Below are positions 1 to 57,630 of a DNA stretch of 64,000 nucleotides, in pieces. The stretch spans positions 596,053 through 660,052 of the forward strand of contig CALSTM010000003.1 of assembly GCA_943789275.1 (NCBI GenBank), given 5' to 3'. A program made the position numbers and the translations under genes. Position 1 is the first letter of the stretch. Every line of letters begins with the position of its first letter. The notes under the pieces are model-generated. The model saw only the letters and a program-made list of their open reading frames with translations, did no database searches and had not been told where the DNA came from. The stretch is from Candidatus Poseidoniaceae archaeon (GTDB lineage: Archaea; Thermoplasmatota; Poseidoniia; Poseidoniales; Poseidoniaceae).

Positions 1-591
1 GGCAAGGACGGTAACGCTCTCACCGGTGTTAAAGGCGTAACTCGTGTCTTTGGTACAGCTACCGTGGTAATGGTCAAGGACGATCTCCAAGTCATCAAGG
101 GTATTGGCCCATTCATTGAAGAAAAGCTCAATGCGCTCGGAATCTACACTTACCTACAAGTCTCGAAGATGACCTCAAAACTTGAAACAGACGTCAACGA
201 GGCCATCGAGTTCTTCCCTGGCCGTGTCAAGCGAGACCAATGGGTCAACCAGGCGAAGATTTTGCTCGGTGAGGACGTGAAACTCGATGAGAAGGCACTC
301 AAGCAAGCCGAAGACCTCGAACGAATCTCCAAGAAGGCTGAGTCAATTGACTTCGCTACGCTTGGTGTTGCAAGCGCTTCCGAGAAGGACTCGCTGCAGA
401 CAATCAAAGGGATTGGTCCGTTTATTGAAGAGAAGTTGAATGCGCTTGGTATTTACACCTTCGAACAAGTTGGAAACATGACGCCTGATATTGAAGAACA
501 GGTCAACAAGGCCATCGAGTTCTTCCCAGGCCGTGTCAAGCGAGACCAATGGGCGAAGCAGGCTCGTGAATTGCACAGTAACAAAAAGTGA
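1..591 (+). CDS. C-terminal fragment of a protein ending in two tandem HhH-like domains (IKGIGPFIEEKLNALGIYT...FFPGRVKRDQW). The gene starts upstream of the window and is probably the cytoplasmic tail of a third giant-adhesin paralog.
   Basis: Frame 1 is open from base 1 with no stop before the listed GTG at 64. There are two ~58-aa internal repeats. The segment is about 85% identical at protein level to the C-terminal ~95 aa of the giant ORF that ends at 13092. Confidence 0.6.
   Translation, partial: GKDGNALTGVKGVTRVFGTATVVMVKDDLQVIKGIGPFIEEKLNALGIYTYLQVSKMTSKLETDVNEAIEFFPGRVKRDQWVNQAKILLGEDVKLDEKALKQAEDLERISKKAESIDFATLGVASASEKDSLQTIKGIGPFIEEKLNALGIYTFEQVGNMTPDIEEQVNKAIEFFPGRVKRDQWAKQARELHSNKK
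88..570 (+). repeat. Tandem duplication of a ~58-aa HhH-like domain, with copies at about 88-260 and about 397-570.
   Basis: The protein repeat IKGIGPFIEEKLNALGIYT(Y/F)xQVxxMTxxxExxVNxAIEFFPGRVKRDQW occurs twice within the ORF. Confidence 0.7.
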
Positions 592-2399: not shown

Positions 2400-2870
2400 A
2401 TGAAATCACTCCTTCTTGCCGTGTTAATGGTCTCCATGTCCCTTTCTGTGGGCCTTGTGGAACTGAACAAAGCCCCTTGGCTTGTTGAAGACGGTGAAAG
2501 CGAACTTGAAGAGTTAAACAATCCCATGCACACAACCGCACCTTCGATTTCCTATTCCTCAAGCACACTCGCTCTTTCCAACAACACCGCTATGACGCCA
2601 GTGACAGCGACGAATTCAGGTGGTACGGTTGGAGTTCCGGTGGCAATAGAACTCAGTACCATCGATGAATGGCTGTCTTTAGCCCTTGATTCTGATGGAT
2701 ACAGGCATGTTTCCGCTGCCGACACCACCAGTAGTGATCTCATGTATGCGACCGACACCAGTGGGGCTTGGGTCAACATAACCGTTGATGCTCCAGGACA
2801 GGTCGGGGAATACAACTCAATCGCTGTTGATTCTGAAGACGTCGTGCATATTGCCTACTTCAGCCTATAA
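2400..2870 (+). CDS. N-terminal signal-peptide-bearing segment of giant surface protein 1. It is separated from the body by an apparent +1 frameshift at about 2865-2870.
   Basis: MKSLLLAVLMVSMSLSVGLVELN is an N-terminal signal-like hydrophobic segment. The segment ends with the repeat ...IAVDSEDVVHIAYFSL followed by a stop. The same repeat unit (..K..DLKYATC..) continues in frame +1 from about 2866. The upstream ORF-track start (2274) is TTG and lacks a signal peptide. Confidence 0.5.
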   Translation: MKSLLLAVLMVSMSLSVGLVELNKAPWLVEDGESELEELNNPMHTTAPSISYSSSTLALSNNTAMTPVTATNSGGTVGVPVAIELSTIDEWLSLALDSDGYRHVSAADTTSSDLMYATDTSGAWVNITVDAPGQVGEYNSIAVDSEDVVHIAYFSL

Positions 2871-5800
2871 GGATGATACGAACGCACTTACTCAAGACCT
2901 CAAGTACGCTACGTGCGCATCATCATGCGCATCAGCATCTTCATGGTCAAACATCACCCTTGACGCCACTGGTTTTGTAGGCGAGAGAACCTCCATCGCA
3001 GTTGATTCAAATGATGGAGTGCATATTTCCTACACCGATAATACCAACAATGCACTGAAGTATACCATGTGCTCCTCATCTTGTGGTACAGCATCTTCAT
3101 GGTCGAATGTTTCTGTTGACGATATAGGAACCGGTGATACTAAACCAACTGATATCGCGATTGATTCAAACGATGCAGTACACATTGCCTACCATTGGCA
3201 AGGAATCAGTAATCTCAACATACGATATGCCACGTGTACTACCTCGTGTGCATCGGCATCCTCATGGACAAACACATCAGGTATTAGCCTCAGCAACATA
3301 CACGATGTGGCACTCGCAATTGATTCAAACGACGCACTGCACATTGCTGGCTATGATTATGACAATAAGGATATCATTTACCTCGCATGTACCTCTTCAT
3401 GTACTTCTACCTCTTCATGGTCAAATATTAGCGCTGTTACCACTGGCGAAGTTGGTGCACGATTATCGATTGCAGTTGATTCTACGAATAACCCACACAT
3501 ATCCTATCAGGCTGGTGCGTGGGCCGTACATGTTGGTCTGCCCCTTGGATACGCCACTTGCACTTCATCGTGTCTAACTGCCTCAAGCTTTTGGACTCAC
3601 GGTACTGTTCATAGCGGCTCCGCCGTTTACACCTATGGTACATCAATTGCAGTCAATCATAACAACGATAGCGTACATATCGTCCATGGCAATTTGTTTT
3701 CCAAATTTTACTACCTCGGCTCAGACACTGCTCCATATACCGTAAGTCCCGACCTTCCAAGTGGTTTGAGTTTGGATTGGAGCAGCGGAAAAATTTCTGG
3801 GACACCGAGAGAACTCTCCACCTCCACGATCTACACCATTACCGCAAGAAATGCACATGGTTCGGATACCGCAACACTGACCATTTCGGTCAACGCACCA
3901 CCTTCGCTGTCCTACGATTTGGGTACAGGAAACAGCACTTCAGTCTATTCCAACAAACAGGTTGCTGCAGGATACCAACACACCTGCGCCATTCTTGACA
4001 ATGGTTCTGTGATGTGCTGGGGAGAGAATGGCCACGGACAGTTAGGCAATGGTGGAACAGGCGACGAACACATACCCGTTTGGGTTGATCTTGGCACGGA
4101 TAGGACCGCCGTTGCGATCACTGCTGGATACAGACACACCTGCGCCATTCTTGACAACGGTTCAGTTTCCTGTTGGGGACAGGGAATTTTTGGGCAATTA
4201 GGTAATGGAGGAACATCACAACAAACCTCACCAACGCTCACCAGCAGCCTTGGAACCGGCCGTACGGCCGTAGCGATCACTGCTGGATACAGTCACACCT
4301 GCGTCATTCTTGACAACGGTTCAGTTTCCTGTTGGGGAATCGGAAATAAAGGACACTTGGGTAACGGAGGTACATCACAACAAAACTCACCAACGCTCAC
4401 CAGCAGCCTTGGTACCGGCCGTACGGCCGTAGCGATTTCTGCTGGACAATATCACTCCTGCGCCATTCTTGACAGCGGTTCAGTTTCCTGTTGGGGGTAT
4501 GGAATTGAGGGACAATTGGGTAACGGAGGTACATCACAACAAAACTCACCAACACTCACCAGCAGCCTTGGAACCGGTCGTACGGCCGTAGCGATTTCTG
4601 CTGGAGGCATCCACACCTGTGCCATACTTGACAACGGTTCAGTCTCATGTTGGGGGGAGGGAAGTAAAGGACGATTGGGTAACGGAGGTACATCACAACA
4701 AAACTCACCAACGCTCACCAACAGCCTTGGAACCGGTCGTACGGCCGTAGCGATTTCTGGTGGAGCCAAACACACCTGCGCCATTCTTGACAGCGGTTCA
4801 GTCTCATGTTGGGGAGATGGAGCCATTGGCATACTGGGTGACGGGGGGACATCAGATCAACACTCACCAACGCTCACCAGCAGCCTTGGAACTGGCCGAA
4901 CGGCAGTTGCGCTTGAGAATGGACACGCCCACACCTGTGCCATTCTTGACGACGCTTCCATGAAGTGTTGGGGAAATGACAACAACAAGCAGTTAGGCAA
5001 TGGAGCCACAGGCAGCACCGGCGACCCACCCGTTTTGGTATCAGGCAGCCATACGTGGGACTCCACGATGATTTCAGGTTCATCAAGTACAGTTTACCTT
5101 GTACAGAATGCGCTTATGAGTTCACTTTCTCCAACGTTAGACGCTGGCTTCGGTGCACCCACTTCATGCAACCAAACAGGGCTACCTTCTGGCCTTTTAC
5201 TTAGCACCACATGCGTGCTCTCAGGAACACCGACAACGTTGGGCAGTACAACGCTGACAATTACCCCCTCGAATGCAGAAGGTAATGGTTCTGCAGCCAT
5301 TTTTATCGTCAATGTGAATGCTTCAGGTGGTTCAATCACCATCAACACAACCTCCACCGAAGGTGGCGTAGGCAGTGCCATCTCAGACATCACCATGTCG
5401 TATACACACACCGCCAGCATTCCAAATTGGGTCTCAGGTGTGACCAACAGCACAATTAATCCAGCCCCCTCAATTCCAGCCGGCGGGGGTTCAAAACTTT
5501 CAATCGATTCTGGTCTAAACGGAGACATCGCAGCTGTGTATTCAGTGGAGCGAACCGGCGCGACCTCAGCCAATCTCTCCTTGCTCTACAAGTGGAACGG
5601 GGCATGGACAGAGAGTACCATTGACAGCAGTGTCGATACGGAGGTTCCATCGGTTGCTATCGACCGACAGGGAGCACTTCACATCGGGTATGTCGATAAG
5701 GACAATGCCAAGTTGAAGTACGCCACCAATGCATCTGGGTCTTGGGTCGTTGAAACGTTGGGTGATGCAGCGACTCACCAATTTGCACAAACGGCAATTT

Positions 5801-8800
5801 CAGTGCATCCGGTCACAAATGCAATTCATATCATGGCCGTGAACGGATCGACCATCCCAACCGCAGGATTGAATCATCACACAAACGAAACAGGTACCTG
5901 GCTCTACTCAACCATTTCTGACCCATCAGAGGAAGAGGGATTCGGGGTTAATTTCGATATTGACTCAGATGGTAACCTGCATGTTGTTTTCCGAAGAGAA
6001 GCCAACAGTGTCACGACCCCTCACTATGACCACTTGATAATGGCCAGTCGAATAAACGGTGTTTGGCAAAACCAGACCATTGCAATCAATCTGATTAACG
6101 GTGCGTATGGACATCACTTTGACATGGCCATTGATTCACAAGATCAAATACACGTAACATATCAAGGTAACCTCAATCAAGGAAAATGGATTTGGCATGG
6201 CGTATTATCAAGTGTTAACCCAAGCAGTAGCTGGGTTTTAACTCAATTATCTACCTCAGGATTTTACCCAGCTTTGGCCGTCGATTCAAACGACAATGTG
6301 CACCTTTCTTATCACGGTGGTGCGGGCTGTCCAAGGATCAGTGGTACCAAACATACACCTCTGGAACGTGGAGTTCGACGAATCGAAACAAGCGCCACCG
6401 CCGGCAACATTCATGGGGGTTACTTCAATGAAATGACCACAGATTCCAATGATGATGTCTTTATATTTGCTTATGGGCAAGTGGTTTCCACTTGCAAAAG
6501 TTGTGACATTCGAATAACCAGAATTCAAGGTTTAGGACCAAGTCTTGCGACGAATCCGATTTTCGAGGTATCACCACCACTCCCAGACGGACTGAACATG
6601 AACTGGCACAACGGTACCATTTCTGGAACACCGACTGAAACCCACGCGAACACTACACACACCGTCACAGTGACTGCCTTTGGCGCAACCACAACTGAAA
6701 CATTCACACTTATGGTCATTGAAGCAGCCGATATTTCCTACGCAGGTTCACCGTTTACGTTCACCAAGAACACCGAAGTCGTTGGAGAAACACCAACCAA
6801 CGCTGGTGGAGCAGTCATCACATGGGCAATTCACCCGCCAGCATCTTCGCTACCAAACGGTCTCTTGTTTGGCCCATCCAACGGAACCATCTACGGTACA
6901 CCGACCACTGTGGTCTCTTCCGCCGTTACGTTCACCGTTTGGGCGAACAATTCGGCTGACAGCAATTCGACAACCATTTCGATCACCGTTCAAGACGAAG
7001 CTCCTGACATTTCGTATGCAGGTTCACCGTTTACGTTCACCAAGAACACGGAAGTTGTTGGAGAAACACCAACCAACGCTGGTGGTGCGGTAAGCACATG
7101 GGCAATTCACCCGCCAGCATCTTCGCTACCAAACGGTCTCTTGTTTGGCACATCCAACGGAACCATCTACGGAACACCGACCACTGTGGTCTCTTCAGCC
7201 GTTACGTTCACGGTTTGGGCGAACAATTCTGCCGATGATATTTCGACAACCATTTCGATTACTGTTCAAGATGAAGATGCTGACATTTCGTACGCAGGTT
7301 CACCGTTCACATTCACCAAGAACAGTCTTGTGAGCGGTGCAACGCCAACTAACGTTGGTGGCGCACCAGATGCATGGGCTATTGATCCAGAAATCTCTAC
7401 CACGATTCCAGGACTCTCGTTCAACACCGCAACGGGTGCTATCACCGGTACGCCAACAGGAGTACATTCGGCCACTATGTTCACCGTTTGGGCCAACAAT
7501 TCCGCAGGTGATATTTCGACAACCATTTCGATCACCGTTCAAGATGAAGATGCTGACATTTCGTACGCAGGTTCACCGTTCACGTTCACCAAGAACAGTC
7601 TTGTGAGCGGTGCAACGCCAACTAACGTTGGTGGCGCACCAGATGCATGGGCTATTGATCCAGAAATCTCTACCACGATTCCAGGACTCTCGTTCAACAC
7701 CGCAACGGGTGCTATCACCGGTACGCCAACAGGAGTACATTCGGCCACTATGTTCACCGTTTGGGCCAACAATTCCGCAGGTGATATTTCGACAACCATT
7801 TCGATCACCGTTCAAGATGAAGATGCTGACATTTCGTACGCAGGTTCACCGTTCACATTCACCAAGAACAGTCTTGTGAGCGGTGCAACGCCAACTAACG
7901 TTGGTGGCGCACCAGATGCATGGGCTATTGATCCAGAAATCTCTACCACGATTCCAGGACTCTCGTTCAACACCGCAACGGGTGCTATCACCGGTACGCC
8001 AACAGGAGTACATTCGGCCACTATGTTCACCGTTTGGGCCAACAATTCCGCAGGTGATATTTCGACAACCATTTCGATCACCGTTCAAGATGAAGATGCT
8101 GACATTTCGTACGCAGGTTCACCGTTCACATTCACCAAGAACAGTCTTGTGAGCGGTGCAACGCCAACTAACGTTGGTGGCGCACCAGATGCATGGGCTA
8201 TTGATCCAGAAATCTCTACCACGATTCCAGGACTCTCGTTCAACACTGCAACGGGTGCTATCACCGGTACGCCAACAGGAGTACATTCGGCCACTATGTT
8301 CACCGTTTGGGCCAACAATTCCGCAGGTGATATTTCGACAACCATTTCGATCACCGTTCAAGATGAAGATGCTGACATTTCGTACGCAGGTTCACCGTTC
8401 ACATTCACCAAGAACAGTCTTGTGAGCGGTGCAACGCCAACTAACGTTGGTGGCGCACCAGATGCATGGGCTATTGATCCAGAAATCTCTACCACGATTC
8501 CAGGACTCTCGTTCAACACCGCAACGGGTGCTATCACCGGTACGCCAACAGGAGTACATTCGGCCACTATGTTCACCGTTTGGGCCAACAATTCCGCAGG
8601 TGATATTTCGACAACCATTTCGATCACTGTGAACGACATTGCACCAGTTTTCACATATTCATCCCTCGAAGTGACATTAACCAATAATTCGGCGGTATCG
8701 CTCTTGCCAATCAGCACGGGCGGGGCGGTCACATCGTGGGAGTACGTAGGAACTGAACCACTCGGTTTGAACTTCGAAGGCGGAAATGGAACCATTTGGG

Positions 8801-11800
8801 GCACACCAACCGTTGTTCAATCGAAAACTCAATACTTGATTTGGGGGAACAATTCAGGTGGACAGCTTTTGGTTTACATGAACATCACCATTTCTGATGT
8901 GCCTGTTTCCTTGAGTTACACCTCTGACAATTACAACCTCACGCGTGCTGTCACAATGACAACGCCAATCAGTCCAGTTTACACTGGTATTGTTGATGCG
9001 TGGGGCATTGAACCTTCACCTACATTGGCGGGTCTCTCTTGGGATTCATCCACAGGTGTGATTTCAGGTACGCCAAACATCAACATGACCCGAACAGAAT
9101 ACACCGTTTGGGCAAACAATACCGGTGGTAACGTGTCTCATAAGTTCAACATCACCATCAACGAACCGATTGTGACCTTGGTCTACACTCCTGCGAGCGA
9201 AACCTTTGTTCGAGGTACGACAATCACCAACTGGCTCCCAACGGTGACCGGTGGAAACGTCGAAACTTGGGGCATTGAACCTTCAATTACGGGAACTGGT
9301 CTTTCGTTTGTCAACGGAGTGATTTCGGGTACACCGACCATCAACATGACCCAAGCCGATTACATCGTATGGGCCAACACGACCGGTGGCGAGACCAACT
9401 TTACCATCAGCATTACCATCAATGAACCGATTGTGACCTTGGTCTACACTCCTGCGAGCGAAACCTTTGTTCGAGGTACGACAATCACCAACTGGCTCCC
9501 AACGGTGACCGGTGGAAACGTCGAAACTTGGGGCATTGAACCTTCAATTACGGGAACTGGTCTTTCGTTTGTCAACGGAGTGATTTCGGGTACACCGACC
9601 ATCAACATGACCCAAGCCGATTACATCGTATGGGCCAACACAACCGGTGGCGAGACCAACTTTACCATCACCATCACCATCAATGAACCGATTGTGACCT
9701 TGGTCTACACTCCTGCGAGCGAAACCTTTGTTCGAGGTACGACAATCACCAACTGGCTCCCAACGGTGACCGGTGGAAACGTCGAAACTTGGGGCATTGA
9801 ACCTTCAATTACGGGAACTGGTCTTTCGTTTGTCAACGGAGTGATTTCGGGTACACCGACCATCAACATGACCCAAGCCGATTACATCGTATGGGCCAAC
9901 ACAACCGGTGGCGAGACCAACTTTACCATCACCATCACCATCAACGAACCTGGAGTCATCCTTGAGTACAATCCAGAAAATGTAATCGTCACAATTGGTG
10001 ACCCAATGACTGCGTTGACCCCAATTGTCAGCAACGGGAGCGTTGAGATATGGAGCATTTATCCCGAACTTGATAATGGATTGAACTTTGCAAACGGAAT
10101 CATCTCAGGAACGCCAACAAGCATTCAATCAAAACAAACCTACAAGATTTGGGCTAACAACACAGGCGGCAATACATATCACGATGTCAACATCACAATC
10201 CTTGACATCGTTCCTGAAATTTCCTACAGTCTCGTAAGCATTGACCTTACTAATGATACGACAAGCAGTGAGTTGCCTCTCTCCCCGAGTAACCTCGGCG
10301 GTCCAGTGGTGTCATGGTCGATTACGCCAGACCTCAGCCTTGGCTTGTCGTTTGACCCTGCAACCGGCGTCATCAGTGGAACACCCACTGAAGTCACAGC
10401 ACTTCGAGTCTACACCGTTACTGCAACAAATACAGGTGGAACGAGCACGACAGAGATTGAAATCACCGTTCTTGACCAAGTTCCGATGATTGCATACGTG
10501 CCTTCGGATGAAGTTCTGCTCTTGAACGAGAGTGTCCTGAACATGGTACCTGAATCCACGGGTGGAGCAATCACGGGCTGGTCAATCACACCTGAGCCAT
10601 CTGCTGGTTTGTTCTTTGACGCATCGACCGGTGTTTTCAGCGGTACGCCTACGGAGACAATGATTCGAACCCTGTACGAGATTACAGCAACAAATGATGT
10701 GGGAAGCATGACCGTTTCGGTTAACATCACCGTTGAAGATTTGAATTACAACCTCTCGCTTGGTCCGATTTATTTGCTCATTAATGAGGAAATGTTGAGT
10801 TTAGAACCGACATCAACCCTCTCTGATGCTGTCTATGAAGTCAGCCCAGATCTGCCTGATGGTCTCTTCCTTGGAGAAAGCAATGGAACCATTTGGGGCA
10901 CACCAACGGTTGGAATGCCTCTGACAAATTTCACCATCTATGCCAACAGCAGTTTGTTCAATGATGTGCTTGAAATCCAAATCGGAGTCCTAGAAGATTC
11001 AGATTCGGATGGAATGCCGAACCAACTGCCGCTTGGTTACAATCCACTCGGCGGTCTTACCGAAGACTTGGACGATGACGGTGACGGCTTCACTGATGCC
11101 GAGGAAAGCGAATGCGTTTCAGACGCATTGGATGCAGATTCAGCGCCAACCGACCTCGATGGCGATTCCATCTGCGACGCATTGGATGATGACGTCGACG
11201 GCGATGGCTTGTTGAATGATGTTGAAACAAACACCTCAACCTACGTGGATGAGAACGATACTGGAACCGACTCAATGAACGCTGACACCGACGGTGACGG
11301 CGTTTGCGATGGACCTCAAGTGCCAGCTAACGGCGGCTGCACCGCAGGACCAGATGTGTTCCCACTCGACCCTGCAGGCTCCGTTGACAGCGATGGTGAC
11401 GGCATGCCGGACACTTTGAACGGTGAATCCACCAGTTCACCACCTCTGGTCGAAGACCTCGATGACGACAACGACGCTTGGTCTGACGAGATGGAAGCAG
11501 CATGTGGAACGGACAGCGTCGATTCGAACAGTGTTCCTAGCGATGAAGACGCCGACGAAATCTGTGACAGCCTTGACACGAACCTGGACCTGCCGTTCAA
11601 CCTCACATACCCAACCGATACATTGACTGTAACATTAGGTGAAGAGATTTCAATCCTGCTTCCAAACCTCACCGGTTTGGGTGAAGTGTCTTCTTGGGAG
11701 ATTGAAGGTGAATTGCCCGAGGGATTGACCTTTGGCTGGAGTCCAGCAAGGGATGCTGCTCTTGACGGAAGTATACGTGGTACACCAACTGCAGTAATGT

Positions 11801-13092
11801 CTGCGACCGTCTTTACCATCTGGGCGAACAACTCTGCATACAGTCAATCGTTTGAACTTACGATTACTGTTCTCGAAGACCTCGTTCTTCCAAATGATGA
11901 TGGTGATGCTGGTGTTGATGAGGATGATGAGGACACCCCGCTGCTCCTCACTTGGGGTTACATCTGTTGCCCGTTGCTTCTTCTGCTTCTGCTGTCCGTC
12001 TTTATGTTGTTCTTCATCGGTGAAAAACAAGTCGTTATCGATGCTGAACCTTCAAACACTTTTGTAAAACCAGTTAGCAAAAGAGGCACAGGTACTCAAG
12101 AAGATCCTTTCGTATTGAAATCAATTGGAGGTCTCAAACCCGGTGGAAAAGCGAACAGCCATGAACGAATTACATTCGTCGGCTTGACAGTAGAGAGTAT
12201 TGAAATAATCGATTTGGAGCAAAAGAACAATGGAAATAAATTTTCCATGTTCATGCTCAAGCCAGCCTCCAGTGAAACGGGTGTTCGAATGCTTGGTATC
12301 GACGAGAATGTAGACACCACCATTGGCATGAGATTCGATGACAGTAAAGAAGAATCTTCCGTTAAGGGCGATGAATATTCAGCGTTGTTGAAAATTGGCA
12401 AATCCAGTGTTTACTTTTCTTGGACGGTGACGGTTAAACCGAGCAAGGTCAACAAAGTGAAGCCTAGAGAACCAATAGTGACGATTAAATCGACACAATC
12501 CATGTCCAAATCGGGTTCAATGAGTTCTTCTGAACCAAAGTCGTCCGTGGAGGAGAAGGCTGCAAAGGATGCTGAAGCTAAGGCTGCAAAGGATGCCAAA
12601 GCGCAAGCAGATGCGGATACTAAGGCGGCAAAGGAAGCCAAAGCGCAAGCAGATGCGGATGCTAAGGCGGCAAAGGAAGCCAAAGCGCAAGCAGATGCGG
12701 ATGCTAAGGCGGCGAAGGAACTCAAAGCACAAGCGGATTCAGAAGCCAAAGCAGTTAAAGAAGCCAGAGCCAAAGTCGACGAAGATGCTGCAGCTGTTGC
12801 CAAAAAGGCAGAAGAATTGGAACGTATCGCAAAGCGGGCTAAAAGTATTGATTTCGCTACGCTCGGTGTGGCTAACATCGGTGAAAAAGATGACCTGCAA
12901 GCCATCAAGGGCGTTGGTCCGTTCATCGGAGAAAAGTTGAATGCACTCGGCATCTTTACGTTTGAGCAAGTCGGAAACATGACGCCTGAAATTGAAGAAC
13001 AGGTCAACAAAGCGATTGAATTTTTCCCTGGCCGCGTTAAGCGAGACCAGTGGGCGAAGCAAGCAAGGCAACTTCATCATGATAAAAAGTGA
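2785..13092 (+). CDS. Body of giant secreted, membrane-anchored adhesin-like protein 1 (3435-aa ORF, ~3,600 aa with the N-terminal segment). It contains beta-propeller-like repeats, RCC1-like repeats, tandem Ig-like (He_PIG or cadherin-like) domains, TSP3-like Ca-binding repeats, a single TM helix, and a cytoplasmic tail with AK-rich repeats and an HhH-like domain.
   Basis: A single 10.3-kb ORF. The RCC1 signature HTCAILDNGSVSCWGxGxxGQLGNGG occurs seven times. LPxGLxFxxxxGxIxGTPT Ig-like units number more than 20. The acidic repeats include DxDxDGxxD (DTDGDGVCD). The hydrophobic helix is LLLTWGYICCPLLLLLLLSVFMLFFIG. The C-terminus is IKGVGPFIGEKLNALGIFTFEQV...FFPGRVKRDQW. Confidence 0.85.
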   Translation: MMLQDRSGNTTQSLLILKTSCILPTSAYKDDTNALTQDLKYATCASSCASASSWSNITLDATGFVGERTSIAVDSNDGVHISYTDNTNNALKYTMCSSSCGTASSWSNVSVDDIGTGDTKPTDIAIDSNDAVHIAYHWQGISNLNIRYATCTTSCASASSWTNTSGISLSNIHDVALAIDSNDALHIAGYDYDNKDIIYLACTSSCTSTSSWSNISAVTTGEVGARLSIAVDSTNNPHISYQAGAWAVHVGLPLGYATCTSSCLTASSFWTHGTVHSGSAVYTYGTSIAVNHNNDSVHIVHGNLFSKFYYLGSDTAPYTVSPDLPSGLSLDWSSGKISGTPRELSTSTIYTITARNAHGSDTATLTISVNAPPSLSYDLGTGNSTSVYSNKQVAAGYQHTCAILDNGSVMCWGENGHGQLGNGGTGDEHIPVWVDLGTDRTAVAITAGYRHTCAILDNGSVSCWGQGIFGQLGNGGTSQQTSPTLTSSLGTGRTAVAITAGYSHTCVILDNGSVSCWGIGNKGHLGNGGTSQQNSPTLTSSLGTGRTAVAISAGQYHSCAILDSGSVSCWGYGIEGQLGNGGTSQQNSPTLTSSLGTGRTAVAISAGGIHTCAILDNGSVSCWGEGSKGRLGNGGTSQQNSPTLTNSLGTGRTAVAISGGAKHTCAILDSGSVSCWGDGAIGILGDGGTSDQHSPTLTSSLGTGRTAVALENGHAHTCAILDDASMKCWGNDNNKQLGNGATGSTGDPPVLVSGSHTWDSTMISGSSSTVYLVQNALMSSLSPTLDAGFGAPTSCNQTGLPSGLLLSTTCVLSGTPTTLGSTTLTITPSNAEGNGSAAIFIVNVNASGGSITINTTSTEGGVGSAISDITMSYTHTASIPNWVSGVTNSTINPAPSIPAGGGSKLSIDSGLNGDIAAVYSVERTGATSANLSLLYKWNGAWTESTIDSSVDTEVPSVAIDRQGALHIGYVDKDNAKLKYATNASGSWVVETLGDAATHQFAQTAISVHPVTNAIHIMAVNGSTIPTAGLNHHTNETGTWLYSTISDPSEEEGFGVNFDIDSDGNLHVVFRREANSVTTPHYDHLIMASRINGVWQNQTIAINLINGAYGHHFDMAIDSQDQIHVTYQGNLNQGKWIWHGVLSSVNPSSSWVLTQLSTSGFYPALAVDSNDNVHLSYHGGAGCPRISGTKHTPLERGVRRIETSATAGNIHGGYFNEMTTDSNDDVFIFAYGQVVSTCKSCDIRITRIQGLGPSLATNPIFEVSPPLPDGLNMNWHNGTISGTPTETHANTTHTVTVTAFGATTTETFTLMVIEAADISYAGSPFTFTKNTEVVGETPTNAGGAVITWAIHPPASSLPNGLLFGPSNGTIYGTPTTVVSSAVTFTVWANNSADSNSTTISITVQDEAPDISYAGSPFTFTKNTEVVGETPTNAGGAVSTWAIHPPASSLPNGLLFGTSNGTIYGTPTTVVSSAVTFTVWANNSADDISTTISITVQDEDADISYAGSPFTFTKNSLVSGATPTNVGGAPDAWAIDPEISTTIPGLSFNTATGAITGTPTGVHSATMFTVWANNSAGDISTTISITVQDEDADISYAGSPFTFTKNSLVSGATPTNVGGAPDAWAIDPEISTTIPGLSFNTATGAITGTPTGVHSATMFTVWANNSAGDISTTISITVQDEDADISYAGSPFTFTKNSLVSGATPTNVGGAPDAWAIDPEISTTIPGLSFNTATGAITGTPTGVHSATMFTVWANNSAGDISTTISITVQDEDADISYAGSPFTFTKNSLVSGATPTNVGGAPDAWAIDPEISTTIPGLSFNTATGAITGTPTGVHSATMFTVWANNSAGDISTTISITVQDEDADISYAGSPFTFTKNSLVSGATPTNVGGAPDAWAIDPEISTTIPGLSFNTATGAITGTPTGVHSATMFTVWANNSAGDISTTISITVNDIAPVFTYSSLEVTLTNNSAVSLLPISTGGAVTSWEYVGTEPLGLNFEGGNGTIWGTPTVVQSKTQYLIWGNNSGGQLLVYMNITISDVPVSLSYTSDNYNLTRAVTMTTPISPVYTGIVDAWGIEPSPTLAGLSWDSSTGVISGTPNINMTRTEYTVWANNTGGNVSHKFNITINEPIVTLVYTPASETFVRGTTITNWLPTVTGGNVETWGIEPSITGTGLSFVNGVISGTPTINMTQADYIVWANTTGGETNFTISITINEPIVTLVYTPASETFVRGTTITNWLPTVTGGNVETWGIEPSITGTGLSFVNGVISGTPTINMTQADYIVWANTTGGETNFTITITINEPIVTLVYTPASETFVRGTTITNWLPTVTGGNVETWGIEPSITGTGLSFVNGVISGTPTINMTQADYIVWANTTGGETNFTITITINEPGVILEYNPENVIVTIGDPMTALTPIVSNGSVEIWSIYPELDNGLNFANGIISGTPTSIQSKQTYKIWANNTGGNTYHDVNITILDIVPEISYSLVSIDLTNDTTSSELPLSPSNLGGPVVSWSITPDLSLGLSFDPATGVISGTPTEVTALRVYTVTATNTGGTSTTEIEITVLDQVPMIAYVPSDEVLLLNESVLNMVPESTGGAITGWSITPEPSAGLFFDASTGVFSGTPTETMIRTLYEITATNDVGSMTVSVNITVEDLNYNLSLGPIYLLINEEMLSLEPTSTLSDAVYEVSPDLPDGLFLGESNGTIWGTPTVGMPLTNFTIYANSSLFNDVLEIQIGVLEDSDSDGMPNQLPLGYNPLGGLTEDLDDDGDGFTDAEESECVSDALDADSAPTDLDGDSICDALDDDVDGDGLLNDVETNTSTYVDENDTGTDSMNADTDGDGVCDGPQVPANGGCTAGPDVFPLDPAGSVDSDGDGMPDTLNGESTSSPPLVEDLDDDNDAWSDEMEAACGTDSVDSNSVPSDEDADEICDSLDTNLDLPFNLTYPTDTLTVTLGEEISILLPNLTGLGEVSSWEIEGELPEGLTFGWSPARDAALDGSIRGTPTAVMSATVFTIWANNSAYSQSFELTITVLEDLVLPNDDGDAGVDEDDEDTPLLLTWGYICCPLLLLLLLSVFMLFFIGEKQVVIDAEPSNTFVKPVSKRGTGTQEDPFVLKSIGGLKPGGKANSHERITFVGLTVESIEIIDLEQKNNGNKFSMFMLKPASSETGVRMLGIDENVDTTIGMRFDDSKEESSVKGDEYSALLKIGKSSVYFSWTVTVKPSKVNKVKPREPIVTIKSTQSMSKSGSMSSSEPKSSVEEKAAKDAEAKAAKDAKAQADADTKAAKEAKAQADADAKAAKEAKAQADADAKAAKELKAQADSEAKAVKEARAKVDEDAAAVAKKAEELERIAKRAKSIDFATLGVANIGEKDDLQAIKGVGPFIGEKLNALGIFTFEQVGNMTPEIEEQVNKAIEFFPGRVKRDQWAKQARQLHHDKK
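3960..5010 (+). repeat. Seven RCC1-like (beta-propeller blade) repeats of about 150 bp each, encoded within giant gene 1.
   Basis: Recurring xHTCAILDxGSVxCWGxxxxGQLGNGGTSQQNSPTLTSSLGTGRTAVAIxAG. Several copies share long identical nucleotide runs (for example acggttcagtttcctgttgggg). Confidence 0.75.
6724..8635 (+). repeat. Seven tandem 273-bp (91-aa) Ig-like domain repeats. The last five (7271-8635) are nearly identical at nucleotide level.
   Basis: The protein unit DADISYAGSPFTFTKNSLVSGATPTNVGGAPDAWAIDPEISTTIPGLSFNTATGAITGTPTGVHSATMFTVWANNSAGDISTTISITVQDE occurs five times. Spurious antisense and alternate-frame ORFs recur with an exact 273-nt period (7266, 7539, 7812, 8085, 8358) and identical translations. 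Confidence 0.9.
9163..9945 (+). repeat. Three near-identical tandem repeats of about 261 bp (87 aa), each encoding an Ig-like domain.
   Basis: EPIVTLVYTPASETFVRGTTITNWLPTVTGGNVETWGIEPSITGTGLSFVNGVISGTPTINMTQADYIVWANTTGGETNFTI(S/T)ITIN occurs three times. The nucleotide copies are visibly identical. Confidence 0.85.
12590..12720 (+). repeat. About three tandem copies of a 60-bp repeat encoding the Ala/Lys-rich unit AKEAKAQADADAKAAK in the cytoplasmic tail of giant protein 1.
   Basis: The string gcaaaggaagccaaagcgcaagcagatgcggatgctaaggcggca repeats three times with a 60-nt period. Confidence 0.8.
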
Positions 13093-13177
13093 TTTGAGTT
13101 CTTTTTCAAGGGTTCCAATCGATTCATCCGTTGATGTAAGGCATAACTCATTTAAGTGAGTTTTTCGACCTGCACTC

Positions 13178-13501
13178 ATGAGAGGGGACGCCGTAGGTAT
13201 GCCTCTCTTTCAATCGGGCCACTCTGCTGTGTTGAACAGAAAGTCCATCAAGTCAATTTGGCTTGCAGTTTTGATGGTTTCAATGTCGCTTTCTGTTGGC
13301 ATCGTTGAATTGAACCGGACACCGTTGGTAGATGCCATTGGTGTAGCAAGTGTTGGAGCAGGCTGTGCGTTTATCACTCGGGCCAGCGGCGAGGCAATCT
13401 ATGTCGATCCGGTCAACGGTTCGGATGCTTGGGACGGCACCTGGTCGTGTCCAAAAGCAACACTTTCCGATGCTCTGAACGACTCCATTTCAGAACGATG
13501 A
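13178..13501 (+). CDS. N-terminal signal-peptide segment of giant locus 2. It ends at a stop and continues in frame +1.
   Basis: The signal peptide ...KSIWLAVLMVSMSLSVGIVELN matches that of gene 1. YVDPVNGSDAWDGTWSCPKATLSDALNDS is the usual N-terminal lead-in of right-handed beta-helix proteins. The continuation (ND)EIVLYSGRYHENVTVDG lies in the next frame from about 13479. Confidence 0.5.
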   Translation: MRGDAVGMPLFQSGHSAVLNRKSIKSIWLAVLMVSMSLSVGIVELNRTPLVDAIGVASVGAGCAFITRASGEAIYVDPVNGSDAWDGTWSCPKATLSDALNDSISER

Positions 13502-16500
13502 AATCGTACTGTACAGCGGGCGGTATCACGAAAACGTCACTGTTGATGGCAAGGACAACCTTCTGATTCGTGCAGCCGATGGAGCCCGTGTTGTCTTTGA
13601 CGGTACTCGAAGCATTACTGAAGATTTAGGTGGTGTTTGGGGTGCAGCCGACAGCGATGGAATCCAAGAAGTCACTTTGCCTGTTGATGGCTGGCAACTG
13701 TTCCTTGCCTACGAAGAACAAGTTCCTGCTCGATGGCCAAATGCCCAATTCTCTGATGAAACGGTCTTCAATCGTTCGTACTGGGCTGAAGGCACATTGA
13801 CCGGTTCAAACAATGCCTACACGCAAGGCTGGTTGACAGATGCTGGTCCTGAAACAGGTGTTCACACAGGCCTCAATGAAACAATTAACGCCACAGGCCT
13901 CGACCCTGAAGGGGCTATTGCGGTGATGAACCTCGGTTCGTTCCGCTCCAACAGCCGTGTCATCACCGATTGGAATTCGGCCAACGGGACGTTTGCATAC
14001 GATGGCACTGGCGTAGGTTGGAAAACCAAGCATCACGCTTACTTCCTTGAGGGCAAGCGAGAACTCATCGATGTCGATGGTGAATGGTGGTTCAACAATG
14101 CAATCAACCGCCTGCATTACAAAACGCCAAGCGGGCAGAATGCAAACAATTTGGATTTGCGTGTCAAGGTACAACCGTTTGCGATGAGCGTTGAAAACTC
14201 CGACGGCGTGACCATCCAAGGCCTCGATTTCTTTGGAACGACGGTCAACTTCAACGAATGCGATGGATGCAGTTTCACCAATTCGACCCTCGAATATCCA
14301 AGCACCTCAAAGCGTGGATTGGGTATTGCCGGCGAATCAGAAGATGACCGTTGGATGACACGTTTCTATCGTTCAACCAACTCGTTTGTCGACAACATTT
14401 CCATCACCAACACCGACGGTGGCGCTCTTGAATTCCAAGGGTCTGCGGGTCAGTCGCACAACAACACGGTGAACAATTCCTACTTCCACGCCATCGACTG
14501 GTCAGCTGCCGACCAGAAAGGACTGATGGTCACAATTTACGAGGGAGGCCGAGACATGTACTTCACCAACAACACCGTTCACTTGACCGGGGCTTCATCC
14601 GTACTCTCCATTGGTGATGCGCCCAAGGTGTTCTACAACGAAGTCTGGGATGTTGGGCATTTGCAAACTGATGGCGCTGTTGTTCAGATCATGCAAGGTG
14701 AGGCCCCAGGTGCTGAAGTTGCTCACAACTGGATTCATGACATCATCAAGTACGGTGCCCGGTTTGATGCACCCATTGGAGAAGCGGGAGAAGGCCGGAA
14801 TGGAACCATGCATCACAATGTCATTTGGAATGTAACGGGCGGTTTGATGGTTAAGGGGGACTATCACGACGTCCACAACAACACGGTGTTCAATTCCTCA
14901 GATGGCAAAAATGACATCATTGCCCTCACCGATGGCGAGATCAACAACAAAAATTCGACGTTTCACCGCAATGCGGTGGATAAGATGGCCGACCATCGCT
15001 CAGGCTCATGGTCGCTTTATCCACTTCCCGCTGGGACGTATTGGAACAACTGGAACGGCTACGTCAACACCACGGATACGGTTTGGAATCAACTGGTTGA
15101 CCCTGCCAATTACGATTTCAGACCGAAGACCAACTCCCATCTTGACAACATGAGTGCGGGTGCATACGATGCTGGTGTGAGCAATCCGTGGACGGCCGGT
15201 ATTTCTTGGACATACACGACGCCCGATGCACCGGTCGAAGGGTGTATGCTCGATTATGCTGACAACTACGATGCAGACGCCACGCTATCAGACGGCTCGT
15301 GCTCCTTCGCATCGTATACGCCACCGGCCACGCTCGACCTCCGTCTCCATCTTGACCCAACCAACAGCAGTTCCTACAGCGGCAGCGGCACCAACGTCGC
15401 TGACCTTTCTGGGTTCAACAACTACGGAACCGTCGCCGCCGCTGGACCGACATGGGACGGCGATTTCACACGCTTCTCCTACGATGGGGCGTGCACTGGC
15501 TCGACCCCGAACCTGGTTTGCGATGAGATCGAAGTTTCTGACTCAACGAGCTTGCGCCCGGGCGGAAACGACTGGTCGGTATCAGTTTGGTTCAACGCCT
15601 CAACGCACCAACACAGCGTGATACTCGGCGCCTTCGACGACGGAGGGGCAGCAGTGGATGTTGGATGGGCCATCCGAATGAGAGCATCAGGTGGCATCTA
15701 TGCAAATGTGGGAACCACTTCCAACAATTCGGCCGCATGGACGTCAGAAGCATCCATCGATACGGACCGCTGGTATCACGTGGTCTTGGTTGCAGACCCG
15801 GGAAATACCCTCAGACTCTATGTTGATGGGCAAAACGTCGGAAGCGGTTCCTTGTCTGGAAGTGGAGCCCTGCGCAATGTAAGCAACAGCCTCTTCATCG
15901 CCTCCTACAACGGCGGTGAATATTCTCAGACCTTTGATGGACAAGTTGGTTCCGTCATGGCCTTTGCCGATGCACTCAACGCCACCACCATCAATCAAAT
16001 CTACAATGCAAGCAAGGGTGTGTACAGCAACACGACCACCCTGTCCTTCCCTCAATCTTCACCGACCTTGCTCCTCGGTCAAACATACAGTTTCCCCATG
16101 ACTGTCGCCAACGGTGAGATCACGACGTCCTATTCGCTCACGGGAACCTTGCCAAGCGGCATGAATTTCGAATCGAGCAACGGTACGATTTGGGGAACGC
16201 CAACGGCGGCTATGTCAACCACGAGCTACACCGTGACGGCCAACAACTCAGCCGGCACCTACTCGACCTCGTTCTCGTTGACATCGCAACATGCGGCACC
16301 GTACGATTTGGCCTACGCGCCAGAGAACATGACCCTTGAGAAGGGTACGGCCATGACGACCAACACGCCGAGTGTGAGCGGGGGCGCCATCACATCTTGG
16401 GAAATCAACCCCTCCGTGCCAACTGGACTTTCCTTTAGCACCTCAACCGGTGCCATCAGTGGTACGCCTTACGTGTTGCAAACAACAGCAACCACGTACA

Positions 16501-19500
16501 CGATATGGGCCAACAATTCAGGCGGAAATGCTTCAGCACAGGTCAACATCACCATCAACGATGAAGTGCCGATTATTTCCTATTCGTATGATGACATTAC
16601 CGGTACCAAGAGCGTGGCCATCAGCCCCCATTCTGGTCCAACTACGAGCGGTGGGACCATCACCTCATGGGAGATTTCACCATCACCAGGTTCTGCGTTC
16701 CACTTTAATTCCGCAAATGGCTACATCAGCGGAACTCCGGGGATTCTTCTGGCTAGAACCCAATACACCATTTGGGCCAACAATTCAGGTGGTTCGTCCG
16801 TTGCCTATGTCAACGTGACCATCAACGATGCAGCGCCGAACGCGTTGGGTTATTCTCCAGAAAATATGACACTCGAGAAGGATACAGCGATGACGCCGAA
16901 CCTTCCTTCGGTCAGTGGTGGAACCATCACGTCATGGGAAATCAGTCCTTCTCTGCCGAGCGGTCTGACATGGGGGGCCTCGGATGGGAAAATCAGTGGA
17001 ACACCCGCCGTTCTGCAAACGACGACGGTTACGTACACGATTTGGGCCAACAACTCAGGTGGTTCAGATTCCGCTCAAGTGAACATCACCATCAACGACC
17101 AACTCGCATCTGCAACCTATCCTTCAACCGTTGAAGTATCCAACGACCGAGCGATGACGACGGTCTCGCCGACCGTCACCGGTGGAGCGGTCATCTCGTG
17201 GGTCATCGTGCCTTCACTCTCCTCAGGCCTCAATTTCGGTAGTAGCAACGGAAGCATCTGGGGCACGCCAACAGGATTGTTGGAGAACGCCACCTACACC
17301 GTCTATGCGAACAACAGCGGCGGTTCAACCAGCATTACCTTCACGCTCGGGCTCAACTGGACGCTGACGCCAAGTGCCGAGGGTGCCTTCATCACCCGCA
17401 ACAGTTCCATTGCCAGCGACATCACGTGGGAATGGGATTACGATCCGCTTGAAGCTCAGAACCTTTCATTGGTGACTGGAGAATGGAACACCTGTGCCCT
17501 TGATAGCAATCAAAACGTGTTTTGTTGGGGACGAAACGGCAACGGTCAAATCGGCAACGGACAAACTGGAACGTCTGGTTGCGGTACATCAGGCCACAAG
17601 TGCAAGGACATTCCAACAGCAACGAACGATTTGGGCTCGGACGTGATCTCCCTTGCCTTTGGCCACCAGCATGCATGTGGCTTGCTTGACACTGGTGCCG
17701 TGAAGTGTTGGGGCCGAAACAATGCAGGGCAACTTGGAACCAGCGGTGGAGACAAGGATACGCCTCAAACCATCAATCTCGGGTCAGGGCGAACCGCTAC
17801 GAGCATCTACGCCGGTGGCCACTACACCTGCGCCATCCTCGATGACGCCTCCGTCAAGTGCTGGGGGGAGAATGGGAACGGTCAACTCGGTATTGGTTCA
17901 AACTCGAACGCCAACACACCGACCACCATTAACACCCTCGGGTCAGGTCGCACGGCTATTTCTTTAGCAACCGCCATGAGTGCAGTCTGTGCCCTCCTCG
18001 ATGACGGTTCAGTCAAGTGTTGGGGAGCCTCCGCAAATGGCCAGTTAGGCAATGGGGGTACCAGTTCAAATCTGAAGAGTCCACCTGCATCTGCAATTAA
18101 CCTCGGAACCGGCCGTACTGCAAAAGCCATCACAGGTGGCGAATCCCATTTCTGCGCCATCCTCGATGACGATTCCATCAAGTGTTGGGGCAATGGATTC
18201 AATGGGAAACTAGGAACCGGGACAACTTCCCACAGATCAACACCAACCTCAACCAGCGGAAGTTTCGCTACAGGTCGCTATGCGGTCGCCATTGACGCTG
18301 GCTACGATCACACCTGTGCCATTCTCGATAACGGCCAACTCACATGCTGGGGTTCTGATTCTGATGGCCAACTGGGTAACGGCGCTACCACGGGTACGAA
18401 ATCATCGATTCAATCCACAACCGTCACTCTTGGGTCGGGACGAACGGCCATTTCGCTTTCTGCAGGTGGAGAGCACACCTGTGCGCAACTGGACAATGGA
18501 CAACTCAAGTGCTGGGGGAATCGAGCAGACGGTCAAGTTGGCGACAACGGGAATTTCAACAATCCGTCCGATCGCACGAGCCCTTCCTCCGTATCCAACA
18601 ACAACCACGGCGGATATACCTATCTCAATACGGGCGTCATGCCTTCTTCCGCTGTTACTGGCGCTACCTGCGAGATCTCGCCTTCCCTCCCAACCGGCCT
18701 CAGTTTGACCGCCGGCACCTGCACCATCACCGGCACACCGACCGCTACAGCCAGCAACGCCACCTACACCATTTGGGCCAACGTTTCCGGCACATCGTAC
18801 AGCGGTCAAATCTGGCTTGAAGTCGGTTTGAATGCACCGGACATTTCCTATTCGTCTTCGACCTATACCTACACCAAGGACATAGAAATTTTCACGCTCA
18901 ACCCAACCAACGTCGGTGGCGAAGTGACAACTTGGGCCATCAACGCAACGTTGCCATCAGGCCTTACATTCGAGACCAGTAACGGTACAATTTGGGGCAC
19001 ACCGGACACGATTACGGCATCAACCACCTACACGGTATGGGCGAACAATTCCGCTGATTCAGATTCCTTCACCATCACGTTCACCGTAAACGATGCTACT
19101 CCGAATTTCTATTACGGCAGCGCAAGCGGTGGAGGCGCACACACACTTGTCCTCTATCTGGATCAGACCATGAATCCACTCACGCCGACCCAGGCATCCG
19201 GGGGTGGAGCGATCACTTCGTGCAGCAGTTCACCATCACTGCCTTCTGGGCTGTCGTTGAGTTCAACATGTGTCCTTTCAGGAACACCTGATGCAACCGC
19301 TACCGGGGCCTTCTACACCATCACAGGAACCAACACAGGCGGTAGCGATACAGCATCGTTGTACATCGAAATCCGCTCCTATGGTGGAACATTGAGCGTG
19401 ACACCAAGCAACACTGAAGGCAGCGTGAACAGTTCCATCTCAGACATCACGATGTCCTATGCGCATCAAATCAGCAACTACGGTTGGACATCTGGTGTAA

Positions 19501-23309: not shown

Positions 23310-23508
23310 TGTGGCTTACTTTGGTCAACAAACATCTTCTGGAATTTTCTCGCTCTATGCTTACAATGCTTCAAATGCGACGCTATGGATGGTTTCAGGG
23401 AGTAATGCTAATCGTGGTGTTGCTGTAACTATTGACGGTGTATTGTATGGTAGTCGTGGTCTACAGTTCTCTTCCAGGTGGCTCTACACTCTGGGCGCAC
23501 AACCCTAA
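23173..23508 (+). CDS. Short frame-shifted fragment of giant locus 2 carrying kelch-like LYAYNASNATLWMVSG repeats.
   Basis: It continues the xLWAHNxSNGTxW repeat family seen at the end of the preceding ORF and the start of the following one. Confidence 0.35.
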   Translation: MCLWQSSVTVVPTVVRHGRTTSATGHLGASQSYMMHTTAGAQVIGDVAYFGQQTSSGIFSLYAYNASNATLWMVSGSNANRGVAVTIDGVLYGSRGLQFSSRWLYTLGAQP

Positions 23509-25891: not shown

Positions 25892-25942
25892 TGACGCTCA
25901 AGACGTTCACAATTTCGGCGAGCAATAGCGGCGGTTCAGTCA

Positions 25943-27331: not shown

Positions 27332-27458
27332 GGTCCCGACAATAGCGTACTCGCCGAACGATTTGGACCATGACCAATAACACGGCAAGCAGCGACCTTC
27401 CGCTCTCGCCGACCATCACAGGTTCGGTGAAATCACGTCGTGGGCCATCAACGCCATC

Positions 27459-30521: not shown

Positions 30522-30870
30522 CACGTAGCATGTTCACGATTACCGCAACCAACACCGGTGGAACGGCAACAGCGTACATCAACATCACAATCGTTGACGA
30601 ACTTCCAACGATTGCATACTCGCCGAACGATTTGATTATGACCAACAATACTGTTTCGAGTGATCTTCCGCTTTCGCCGACCATCACCGGCTCTGGCGAG
30701 ATTGTATCGTGGGCCATCAGCCCATCAGAGCCAAGCGGTCTTTCCTTTGATACTTCGAACGGAACGCTCAGCGGAACGCCGACTGAATTGCTGACACGTA
30801 CAATGTACACCATCACAGCAACAAACACAGGTGGGACAGCAACAGCGTACATCAACATCACCGTTCTTGA
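29230..30870 (+). repeat. About six tandem 273-bp Ig-like-domain repeats at roughly 90% identity. They span the frameshift at about 30430-30520.
   Basis: VPTIAYSPNDLxMTNNTASxDLPLxPTITGSGExVSWxISPSxPSGLxFDTSNGTLSGTPTELxTRTMxTITATNTGGTATAYINITIVDE recurs six times. Confidence 0.8.
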
Positions 30871-55334: not shown

Positions 55335-55353
55335 CGAATCACTCCACTTTTGT

Positions 55354-56880: not shown

Positions 56881-57010
56881 ACGCGCACCCTCTGCCGAAG
56901 CATTTTGTCACACGCTATGGCCGACTATAACTCTTGGGTGAAAACAACCCCAAAAACCGTTACCTGCGAGCAGAATATTTTCTCCACAATCTCCGTTTTG
57001 ACGGCAGAGT

Positions 57011-57568: not shown

Positions 57569-57630
57569 GCTTGAACGGCGCAGCCGAATGCTCATCAAGA
57601 TACCTCCTTTCAGTAGCCAAAGTTTGCGTT

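Follow-up and report, generated by a model that had tools for sequence, protein, structure and literature searches.

Is a run of almost indistinguishable coding repeats in an uncultured marine archaeon a real and changeable part of a surface protein, or does it reflect the way in which the genome was assembled? The question is raised by a 64,000-nt stretch of DNA (hereafter the window; coordinates are those of the window unless another locus is named) from a Candidatus (Ca.) Poseidoniaceae archaeon of Marine Group IIa (MGIIa), positions 596,053 to 660,052 of contig CALSTM010000003.1 in assembly GCA_943789275.1. Marine Group II (MGII) archaea rank among the most abundant archaea of the plankton, and none of them has been cultured. 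Five consecutive 273-bp units lie within an open reading frame (ORF) at 2785–13092 (+ strand, 3435 codons), the true 5′ end of which is in another frame within the window. The architecture of the product comprises a signal peptide, N-terminal propeller-type domains and one C-terminal predicted transmembrane helix. From the sequence, the original prediction had proposed that the units are virtually identical, that each encodes a complete immunoglobulin (Ig)-like domain, and that recombination would expand and contract them, varying the length of a surface stalk and exposing the locus to assembly collapse. We consider it very probable that the five units are a genuine variable-number tandem repeat in an MGIIa gene whose product is a giant surface protein anchored in the membrane near its C-terminus.

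The 273-bp array and the predicted fold of its unit

Tandem Repeats Finder (TRF) reported a 273-bp period at 7206–8627, with 5.2 copies, 99% matches and a score of 2781. A self-comparison at a lag of 273 bp delimited the near-perfect run to 7264–8627 on the + strand (1364 bp, 5.0 units). When the units were compared in the register 7271 + k × 273, units 1 and 3 had no differences, units 2 and 4 each had a single change (7584 A>G and 8247 C>T, respectively), and the differences in unit 5 were confined to its last 8 bases, at the junction with the next domain. The internal units are 99.6–100% identical over 273 bp, with only two internal differences, and the five-unit array is far beyond chance. 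The period corresponds to 91 codons, both internal changes are synonymous third-position changes, and the five protein units are identical apart from the C-terminal end of unit 5. The predicted alternate-frame ORFs that differ by single residues are present, and are periodic by-products of the repeat.

The array had been placed at 7271–8635; it is found there, but the in-frame register is 7273–8637, with units at 7273–7545, 7546–7818, 7819–8091, 8092–8364 and 8365–8637. Each in-frame unit consists of an 86-aa He_PIG domain followed by a short 5-aa acidic linker. Two diverged upstream copies had also been proposed, and they are real, but by Pfam matches and unit comparison they have a period of 276 bp and lie at 6721–6996 and 6997–7272 (+ strand), each encoding a 92-aa He_PIG domain. 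This 276-bp pair shares 91% identity, compared with about 69–70% nucleotide and 66–68% amino acid identity between the 276-bp and 273-bp units. In the same stalk, TRF detected a second near-identical array at 9146–9950 (+ strand; 261 bp × 3.1 copies, 98% identity). The two variable arrays are separated by two unique He_PIG domains at 8638–9144 (+ strand), which were delimited with an iterated hidden Markov model (HMM) and served as the anchor for metagenome searches.

A single 273-bp unit matched the Pfam family He_PIG with 34.5 bits (cut-off 24) over profile positions 14–95 of 96. Modelling of one unit with AlphaFold2, with 31 aligned He_PIG domains of the window as input, returned beta strands and one four-residue helical turn, with a predicted local distance difference test (pLDDT) score of 95.6 and a predicted template modelling (pTM) score of 0.84. 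Foldseek searches of the PDB with this model retrieved Ig domains (titin, Robo and Sidekick), extracellular cadherin (EC) domains, and the He_PIG-like domain of Bacteroides alpha-galactosidases (4nzj; template modelling (TM) score 0.76, root-mean-square deviation 2.1 Å). The Pfam match, the all-beta model and the Ig and cadherin structural matches agree with the proposal of one complete Ig-like domain per unit, and each repeat is predicted to be an independently folding globular domain. In a three-unit model, judged from its summary scores, all domains were folded (pLDDT 92.3, pTM 0.67), and the model retrieved cadherin-23 EC1–3, protocadherins and titin I67–69 with a TM score of only ∼0.3.

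Unit number and order among near-identical populations

The gene adjacent to the array-bearing gene encodes a LysE-like transporter, and exact copies of this protein are recorded in 103 blocks of the assembly collection. We compared the window with ten contigs of 0.29–1.03 Mb from ten different European Nucleotide Archive samples (ERZ10646xxx assemblies; L003–L012), each taken with 10 kb on either side and all encoding an identical LysE-like protein. Outside the arrays, the flanks of these ten assemblies are 99.2–100% identical to the window. Nine of the ten assemblies nevertheless contain 3, 3, 3, 4, 4, 5, 5, 5 and 7 of the 273-bp units, and the tenth is rearranged. Set against the window, which has five 273-bp and three 261-bp units, the respective numbers are five and two in L003 and L006, seven and two in L004, four and three in L007 and L009, three and three in L005 and L011, and three and four in L010. 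L008 has five 273-bp units, together with two diverged 273-like units (88% and 93%) that replace the 276-bp pair, and four 261-bp units. In L012, the order is 276a, 276b, 273, 276b′, and the 261-bp array lies beyond the end of the locus. The 261-bp array therefore ranges from 2 to 4 copies among the assemblies that cover it, and its marker single-nucleotide polymorphisms (SNPs) are shuffled like those of the 273-bp array described below. The proposed check by comparison across metagenomes thus found counts that differ between near-identical populations, as expected from expansion and contraction of the stalk.

Less identical repeats in the same gene provide an internal control. Both the RCC1 array, at 85% identity, and the remainder of the gene are colinear in nine of the ten contigs, with a single match of ∼4300 nt over the head; the exception, L012, has a large duplication and not an altered number of RCC1 blades or units. 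The 276-bp pair (91%) is unchanged except in L008, and in L012 the rearranged array comes after the pair. Only arrays that are at least 98% identical vary in copy number within the gene, and the constancy of the others supports a real copy-number effect.

Unit order and type vary as well. In L008, the diverged 273-like units that take the place of the 276-bp pair are at 15180–15722, and a 276b-type unit directly precedes the post-array domain in one long contig (L012, 19494–20039) and one short-read contig (L038, 1–757). L012 also carries, at 10856–18916 in reverse-complemented locus coordinates, a tandem duplication of ∼3.9 kb matching the head region (window 2400–6300), which is either real or an assembly artefact.

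Population-wide, the 273-bp units segregate at five positions (34, 73, 149, 151 and 259, in a register starting at 7278), four of which are synonymous and one of which gives T1548A. The marker variants sit in different units and in different combinations between assemblies, with each of the four possible combinations at sites 34 and 149 represented. The unit with T at position 151 serves to mark position within the array: counted from the end, it is the second unit in the window and L003, and the third in the seven-unit array of L004. In the units of other species, the bases alternative to those of the window at positions 34, 73, 151 and 259 are either fixed or frequent, and these four are therefore real alleles rather than random read errors. 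Nanopore-type systematic errors, considered because all five SNPs are transitions, were rejected for the same four positions on the same grounds. The 149A>G change, seen in the window population only, is less certain.

Short-read contigs mostly break off at the array. A protein search anchored on the two unique domains at 8638–9144 returned 37 metagenome contigs, mostly short-read. In 10 of the 11 closest, the match starts 1–959 nt from the contig end, so these contigs stop in or beside the array, bearing out the predicted risk of assembly collapse. Contigs with the LysE-like gene, which is located between two giant genes, are shorter than 10 kb in 67 of the 103 blocks; those with a T2SSE gene 50 kb away are mostly 50–200 kb.

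Could the five copies, or the differences between assemblies, themselves have arisen by collapse, over-expansion or a chimeric consensus? This is the alternative that survives best, but we consider it improbable. The window does contain consensus errors, including a chimeric 1-nt frameshift at ∼2866 and a He_PIG domain spread over three frames at 25.7–26.1 kb, the gene calls of the comparison contigs are all interrupted, each contig at other places, and short-read assemblies demonstrably fail at the 273-bp array. However, the array recurs in every one of the ten independent assemblies and in four further species, it changes in whole units only, and five units also occur in L003 and L006. The five marker SNPs recur in different arrangements, four of them in common with other species, and variation is restricted to the arrays of at least 98% identity while nine of ten contigs are colinear over the remainder of the 10-kb gene. 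Moreover, an array of 1.4 kb is far shorter than the reads needed to build contigs of 0.3–1 Mb through these genes.

The 5′ end of the gene bears on whether it is functional. Comparison of ORFs placed the start codon, the signal peptide (MKSLLLAVLMVSMSLSVGLV) and the first N-terminal repeat at 2400–2867 (+ strand), in an ORF at 2274–2870 (Met at 2400) that shares a 'YAT...IAVDS..VHI.Y' repeat with the main ORF. One extra base near 2866 puts this signal-peptide part out of frame with the main ORF. At 2862–2870 the window reads AGCCTATAAG, whereas other assemblies are in frame, with AGC-TAT-AAG or AGC-CTT-AAG (AGCTATAAG, AGCCTTAAG). The chimeric form is also found in L008 and L010, L003 has a −1 form, and in L005 the gene is one uninterrupted ORF. 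The window form looks like a blend of the two in-frame alleles and is probably a consensus artefact of mixed strains. Because both alleles are in frame elsewhere and the L005 ORF is uninterrupted, we treat the gene as probably intact, extending over 2400–13092 (∼3,560 codons).

A decaying pseudogene, in which repeat variation would be neutral debris without functional consequence, might be suspected from the out-of-frame signal-peptide part and from the neighbouring giant gene, which is riddled with frameshifts. Against this, the frameshift site mixes two in-frame alleles, L005 has an intact ORF, and the breaks fall at different places in each assembly, as indel errors would give. The unit length also stays a multiple of three, four of the five segregating sites are synonymous, and the ratio of non-synonymous to synonymous differences per site (pN/pS) between species is ∼0.1–0.2. 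We regard decay as very unlikely.

Comparison with other species separates the age of the array type from that of the present units. Orthologous arrays in other Poseidoniaceae have 6 units in L019, 6 in L024, 11 in L021 and 2 in L028 (the chromosome CM001443). Mean within-array identity is 99.0% in the window, 97.7% in L024, 95.0% in L019, 94.2% in L021 and 90.1% in L028, and the window units are all each other's nearest neighbours. Among the four internal units of the window, pS is 0–0.014, compared with a pS of 0.13–0.36 and a pN of 0.015–0.05 between the window units and those of other species. Between species, the units are 87–96% identical in nucleotide sequence and 92–98% in amino acid sequence. 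These values indicate that the array type is old and under purifying selection, and that the units of the window lineage derive recently from one unit, through concerted evolution or recent expansion. The original prediction of a recent amplification of the distal copies thus holds for the units of this lineage, but the array itself is old. Nor does the 276-bp pair represent early copies of the same burst, since other species also have 276-type units of a similar kind immediately upstream of the array. That purifying selection on an essential domain keeps the units identical in a static, ancient array with no copy-number dynamics is the least credible account, because, although the unit protein is indeed well conserved between species, selection on protein cannot explain synonymous identity within the array, near-identical genomes differ in copy number, and other species' own units tolerate 90–95% identity.

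Several points do weigh against a genuine variable-number repeat in a surface protein. To judge from their size (0.3–1 Mb), their 'contig_N' or 'scaffold_N' names and the scattered indels that break the gene variously, the ten comparison contigs appear to be long-read assemblies, and if the assembler mis-estimated the tandem number, the variation would be partly technical. The count of five in the window itself is an assembled number, although two other assemblies (L003 and L006) also have five. Given the consensus errors in the window (near 2866 and at 23–31 kb), the array could be a mixed-population consensus. On the protein side, a rod-like arrangement of the stalk is plausible, with the pTM of 0.67 and the TM scores of ∼0.3 for the three-unit model counting against it, and surface location and an adhesive role are putative. 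No significant family emerged when the N-terminal repeats, the middle region and the tail were compared with Pfam, and the head is without an assigned ligand.

The giant protein and the surrounding locus

The main ORF (2785–13092, + strand) was assigned to a giant surface protein on the basis of its He_PIG matches and an RCC1-like propeller; the whole protein scored 320 bits to He_PIG in Pfam, in 14 significant stretches. The propeller, at 3943–5004 (+ strand; PF25390, PF00415 and PF13540), is built of 159-bp repeats and lies in the candidate N-terminal, membrane-distal head of propeller-type repeats. An iterated HMM derived from the 273-bp unit found 20 He_PIG-type domains in the giant protein. 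Of these, 17 are contiguous and form the predicted stalk (6511–10995, + strand; aa 1243–2737). The stalk is followed by an Asp-rich, thrombospondin-type-3-like region at 10996–11604 (+ strand), a putative Ca2+-binding segment with a weak match to TSP3_bac (E 0.024). Weak TSP3_bac matches in L006, L007 and L011 fall on fragments of the upstream giant gene and not on the array-bearing gene. A membrane-proximal He_PIG domain, again detected with the iterated HMM, occupies 11605–11877 (+ strand).

The single predicted transmembrane helix (LLLTWGYICCPLLLLLLLSVFMLFFIG; 11941–12021, + strand) has the Kyte-Doolittle maximum of 2.97 at aa 3060, and is the sole strongly hydrophobic segment of the main ORF. 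By its position after this helix, the remainder (12022–13089, + strand; ∼355 aa) is predicted to be a cytoplasmic tail. TRF detected Lys/Ala-rich 42-bp repeats in the tail at 12556–12770 (+ strand), and a C-terminal module lies at 12856–13074 (+ strand). The module is homologous to the C-terminus of two PDB chains: the last ∼75 residues of the tail match 8yy9_O ('Reaction center protein O chain', E 2e-12) and 9wqv_a ('NADH:ubiquinone oxidoreductase 41 kd complex I subunit', E 5e-12). Two further copies of this module (window 64–591) close the upstream giant protein, which is 6833 aa long in L004, L008, L010 and L012.

Between the two giant genes are those for the LysE-like transporter (ATG at 2156) and an HTH_10 regulator. 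Among GTDB species representatives, 24 loci have a relative of the LysE-like protein, the best match being 98%. These loci are mostly labelled Ca. Poseidoniaceae or Poseidoniales, with some labelled Methanobacteriota archaeon or uncultured euryarchaeote, and they include the original 'MG-II' chromosome CM001443. Downstream, 13677–33121 contains five consecutive He_PIG-rich ORFs (3210, 819, 462, 1020 and 896 aa), which together look like a single gene of ∼6,480 codons interrupted by many frameshifts. One He_PIG domain of this gene, at 25700–26085, is split over three frames, and a TTT>TT change is found near 30425; the frameshifts are either long-read indel errors or gene decay. The same gene holds further 273-bp arrays at 27348–28411 (93%) and 29284–30861 (82%). 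About 45 kb downstream, at 52711–59331, are T2SSE/T2SSF-type ATPase and membrane-protein genes, probably for an archaeal type IV pilus or archaellum-like assembly system. Scans for tRNA genes and Rfam families across the 64-kb window gave no match. MGIIa genomes are rich in adhesion-type genes, and the way in which MGII archaea attach to particles or other cells has been deduced from gene content only (PMC6461757). The pilus-type reading accords with this adhesion-oriented gene content.

The array may also be one part of a larger pattern of variation. The giant gene (2400–11600) is 90–99% identical in nucleotide sequence to its counterparts in other Poseidoniaceae GTDB species (L019, L021, L024 and L028), whereas the adjacent HTH_10 and LysE-like genes (870–2156) are only 70–76% identical to the same species, and the shift in identity is sharp, at the 5′ end of the giant gene. 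The best-matching species also changes along the gene: 5401–6000 is 98% identical to CM001443, and 3000–5100 is 92–99% identical to FRAM bins and only 67–79% to CM001443. This pattern suggests mosaic recombination of the gene between species. We tentatively entertain, as a possibility somewhat short of even, that the array belongs to a hypervariable surface-protein locus exchanged between species. If so, MGII would diversify a giant adhesin-like protein by two routes, inter-species recombination giving a mosaic head and stalk, and rapid in-frame gain and loss of domains acting as a periscope-like length dial. Together these would make up a system of surface variation in archaea, for which viruses, grazers or particle type are plausible drivers.

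Length variation and known repeat proteins

How would a variable-number repeat of this kind act on the protein? Each unit encodes one stalk domain and its linker in a length divisible by three, so gain or loss of a unit would keep the frame and add or remove whole domains. The identity of the 273-bp units means that misaligned recombination or slippage can change their number and shuffle their variants. The route would be homologous recombination between misaligned units, in which sister chromosomes or genome copies undergo unequal exchange or gene conversion, or alternatively replication slippage; nothing in the anatomy calls for a diversity-generating or programmed mechanism. The population would thus come to carry alleles of 3–7 units here and of 2–4 units in the second array 500 bp downstream. 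Each unit would lengthen the stalk that separates the N-terminal propeller head from the membrane, so that the head is displayed at differing distances from the cell. An Ig-like domain extends over ∼4 nm, and the range from 3 to 7 units would correspond to a span of ∼16 nm; on the same basis, a fibre of ∼20 such domains would be roughly 70–90 nm long. The head is suspected to serve adhesion to particles or cells, but may have another function, and length variation of the stalk may be of selective value.

The literature searched contained neither an account of copy-number variation in archaeal or MGII surface proteins nor any work on archaeal He_PIG. To specialists in surface-protein repeats the behaviour described here is expected; for marine archaeal genomics it is useful and, within the same literature, unreported. 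Short-read metagenome-assembled genomes of these archaea break or collapse at the array, which means that most public genomes systematically lack or misrepresent the largest genes, probably those most exposed ecologically.

The giant RTX/BIg adhesins, such as Marinomonas primoryensis MpIBP, Salmonella SiiE and Pseudomonas LapA, are multi-thousand-residue proteins of aquatic or host-associated cells. They have long tandem Ig-like extenders that are often near-identical, Ca2+-binding acidic motifs and distal ligand-binding modules. Type I secretion serves for their export, and they carry an RTX signal at the C-terminus and a retention module at the N-terminus. By description, the array-bearing protein resembles them in its size, its tandem Ig-like extender and its acidic, putative Ca2+-binding region. 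Unlike them, it has an N-terminal signal peptide and a C-terminal transmembrane helix, i.e. the opposite orientation, and no RTX (HemolysinCabind) family was among the Pfam matches of the main ORF protein. We excluded membership of the RTX/type I secreted adhesin family on the basis of this absent match, the opposite orientation and the transmembrane anchor. Yeast FLO/ALS adhesins offer another parallel, since their coding tandem repeats recombine often and in-frame length alleles alter the projection of the binding domain and the strength of adhesion. However, those proteins, of which PMC6481836 is an ALS example, are eukaryotic, with Ser/Thr-rich glycosylated repeats and a glycosylphosphatidylinositol or cell-wall anchor, whereas here the repeats are discrete Ig-like domains. 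The domain family itself, He_PIG (PF05345, 'putative Ig domain', including dystroglycan-type cadherin-like domains), has a match above the Pfam threshold in every stalk domain; the label describes a fold only, and implies neither copy-number dynamics nor function.

The closest likeness is to the bacterial Periscope Proteins, which include SasG/Aap with G5-E repeats, Rib/Alpha C, Sgo_0707 with SHIRT repeats, and CdrA (Whelan et al. 2021, PMC8201768; review PMC9704523). In that class, greater repeat identity goes with greater variability (PMC8201768). Homologous recombination has been proposed for the repeats, and was shown long ago in the streptococcal M protein, in work cited in PMC9704523. 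In agreement, the array-bearing protein is predicted to be a single chain with a C-terminal anchor and candidate functional domains at the N-terminus, and its predicted stalk consists of tandem folded domains (mostly Ig-like E-set in Periscope Proteins) whose coding repeats are near-identical in DNA. Repeat number differs between close relatives, the most identical repeats vary most, nothing shorter than long reads can resolve them, and homologous recombination is the proposed mechanism in both. High DNA identity, one predicted folded domain per repeat and strain-level copy-number variation, by which Periscope Proteins are recognised, are all found here.

Bacterial origin is not, the host being Ca. 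Poseidoniaceae. Bacterial genomes (NCTC3000) were the source from which the class was defined, and archaea are mentioned in neither PMC8201768 nor PMC9704523; that this host is an uncultured planktonic archaeon bears on the scope of that survey and not on mechanism. The predicted anchor is a transmembrane helix followed by a tail of ∼355 aa that is probably cytoplasmic, and not of the sortase or outer-membrane type. The repeat domain is also a different one, He_PIG, and only 5 + 3 of the ∼20 stalk domains are near-identical. Stalk length would then differ within natural MGII populations by the same genetic principle as in the bacterial adhesins, extending the Periscope principle to archaea and to free-living ocean plankton. 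With surface localisation predicted and a rod-like stalk plausible, the array-bearing protein appears to be an archaeal, He_PIG-based, transmembrane-anchored counterpart of the Periscope Proteins.

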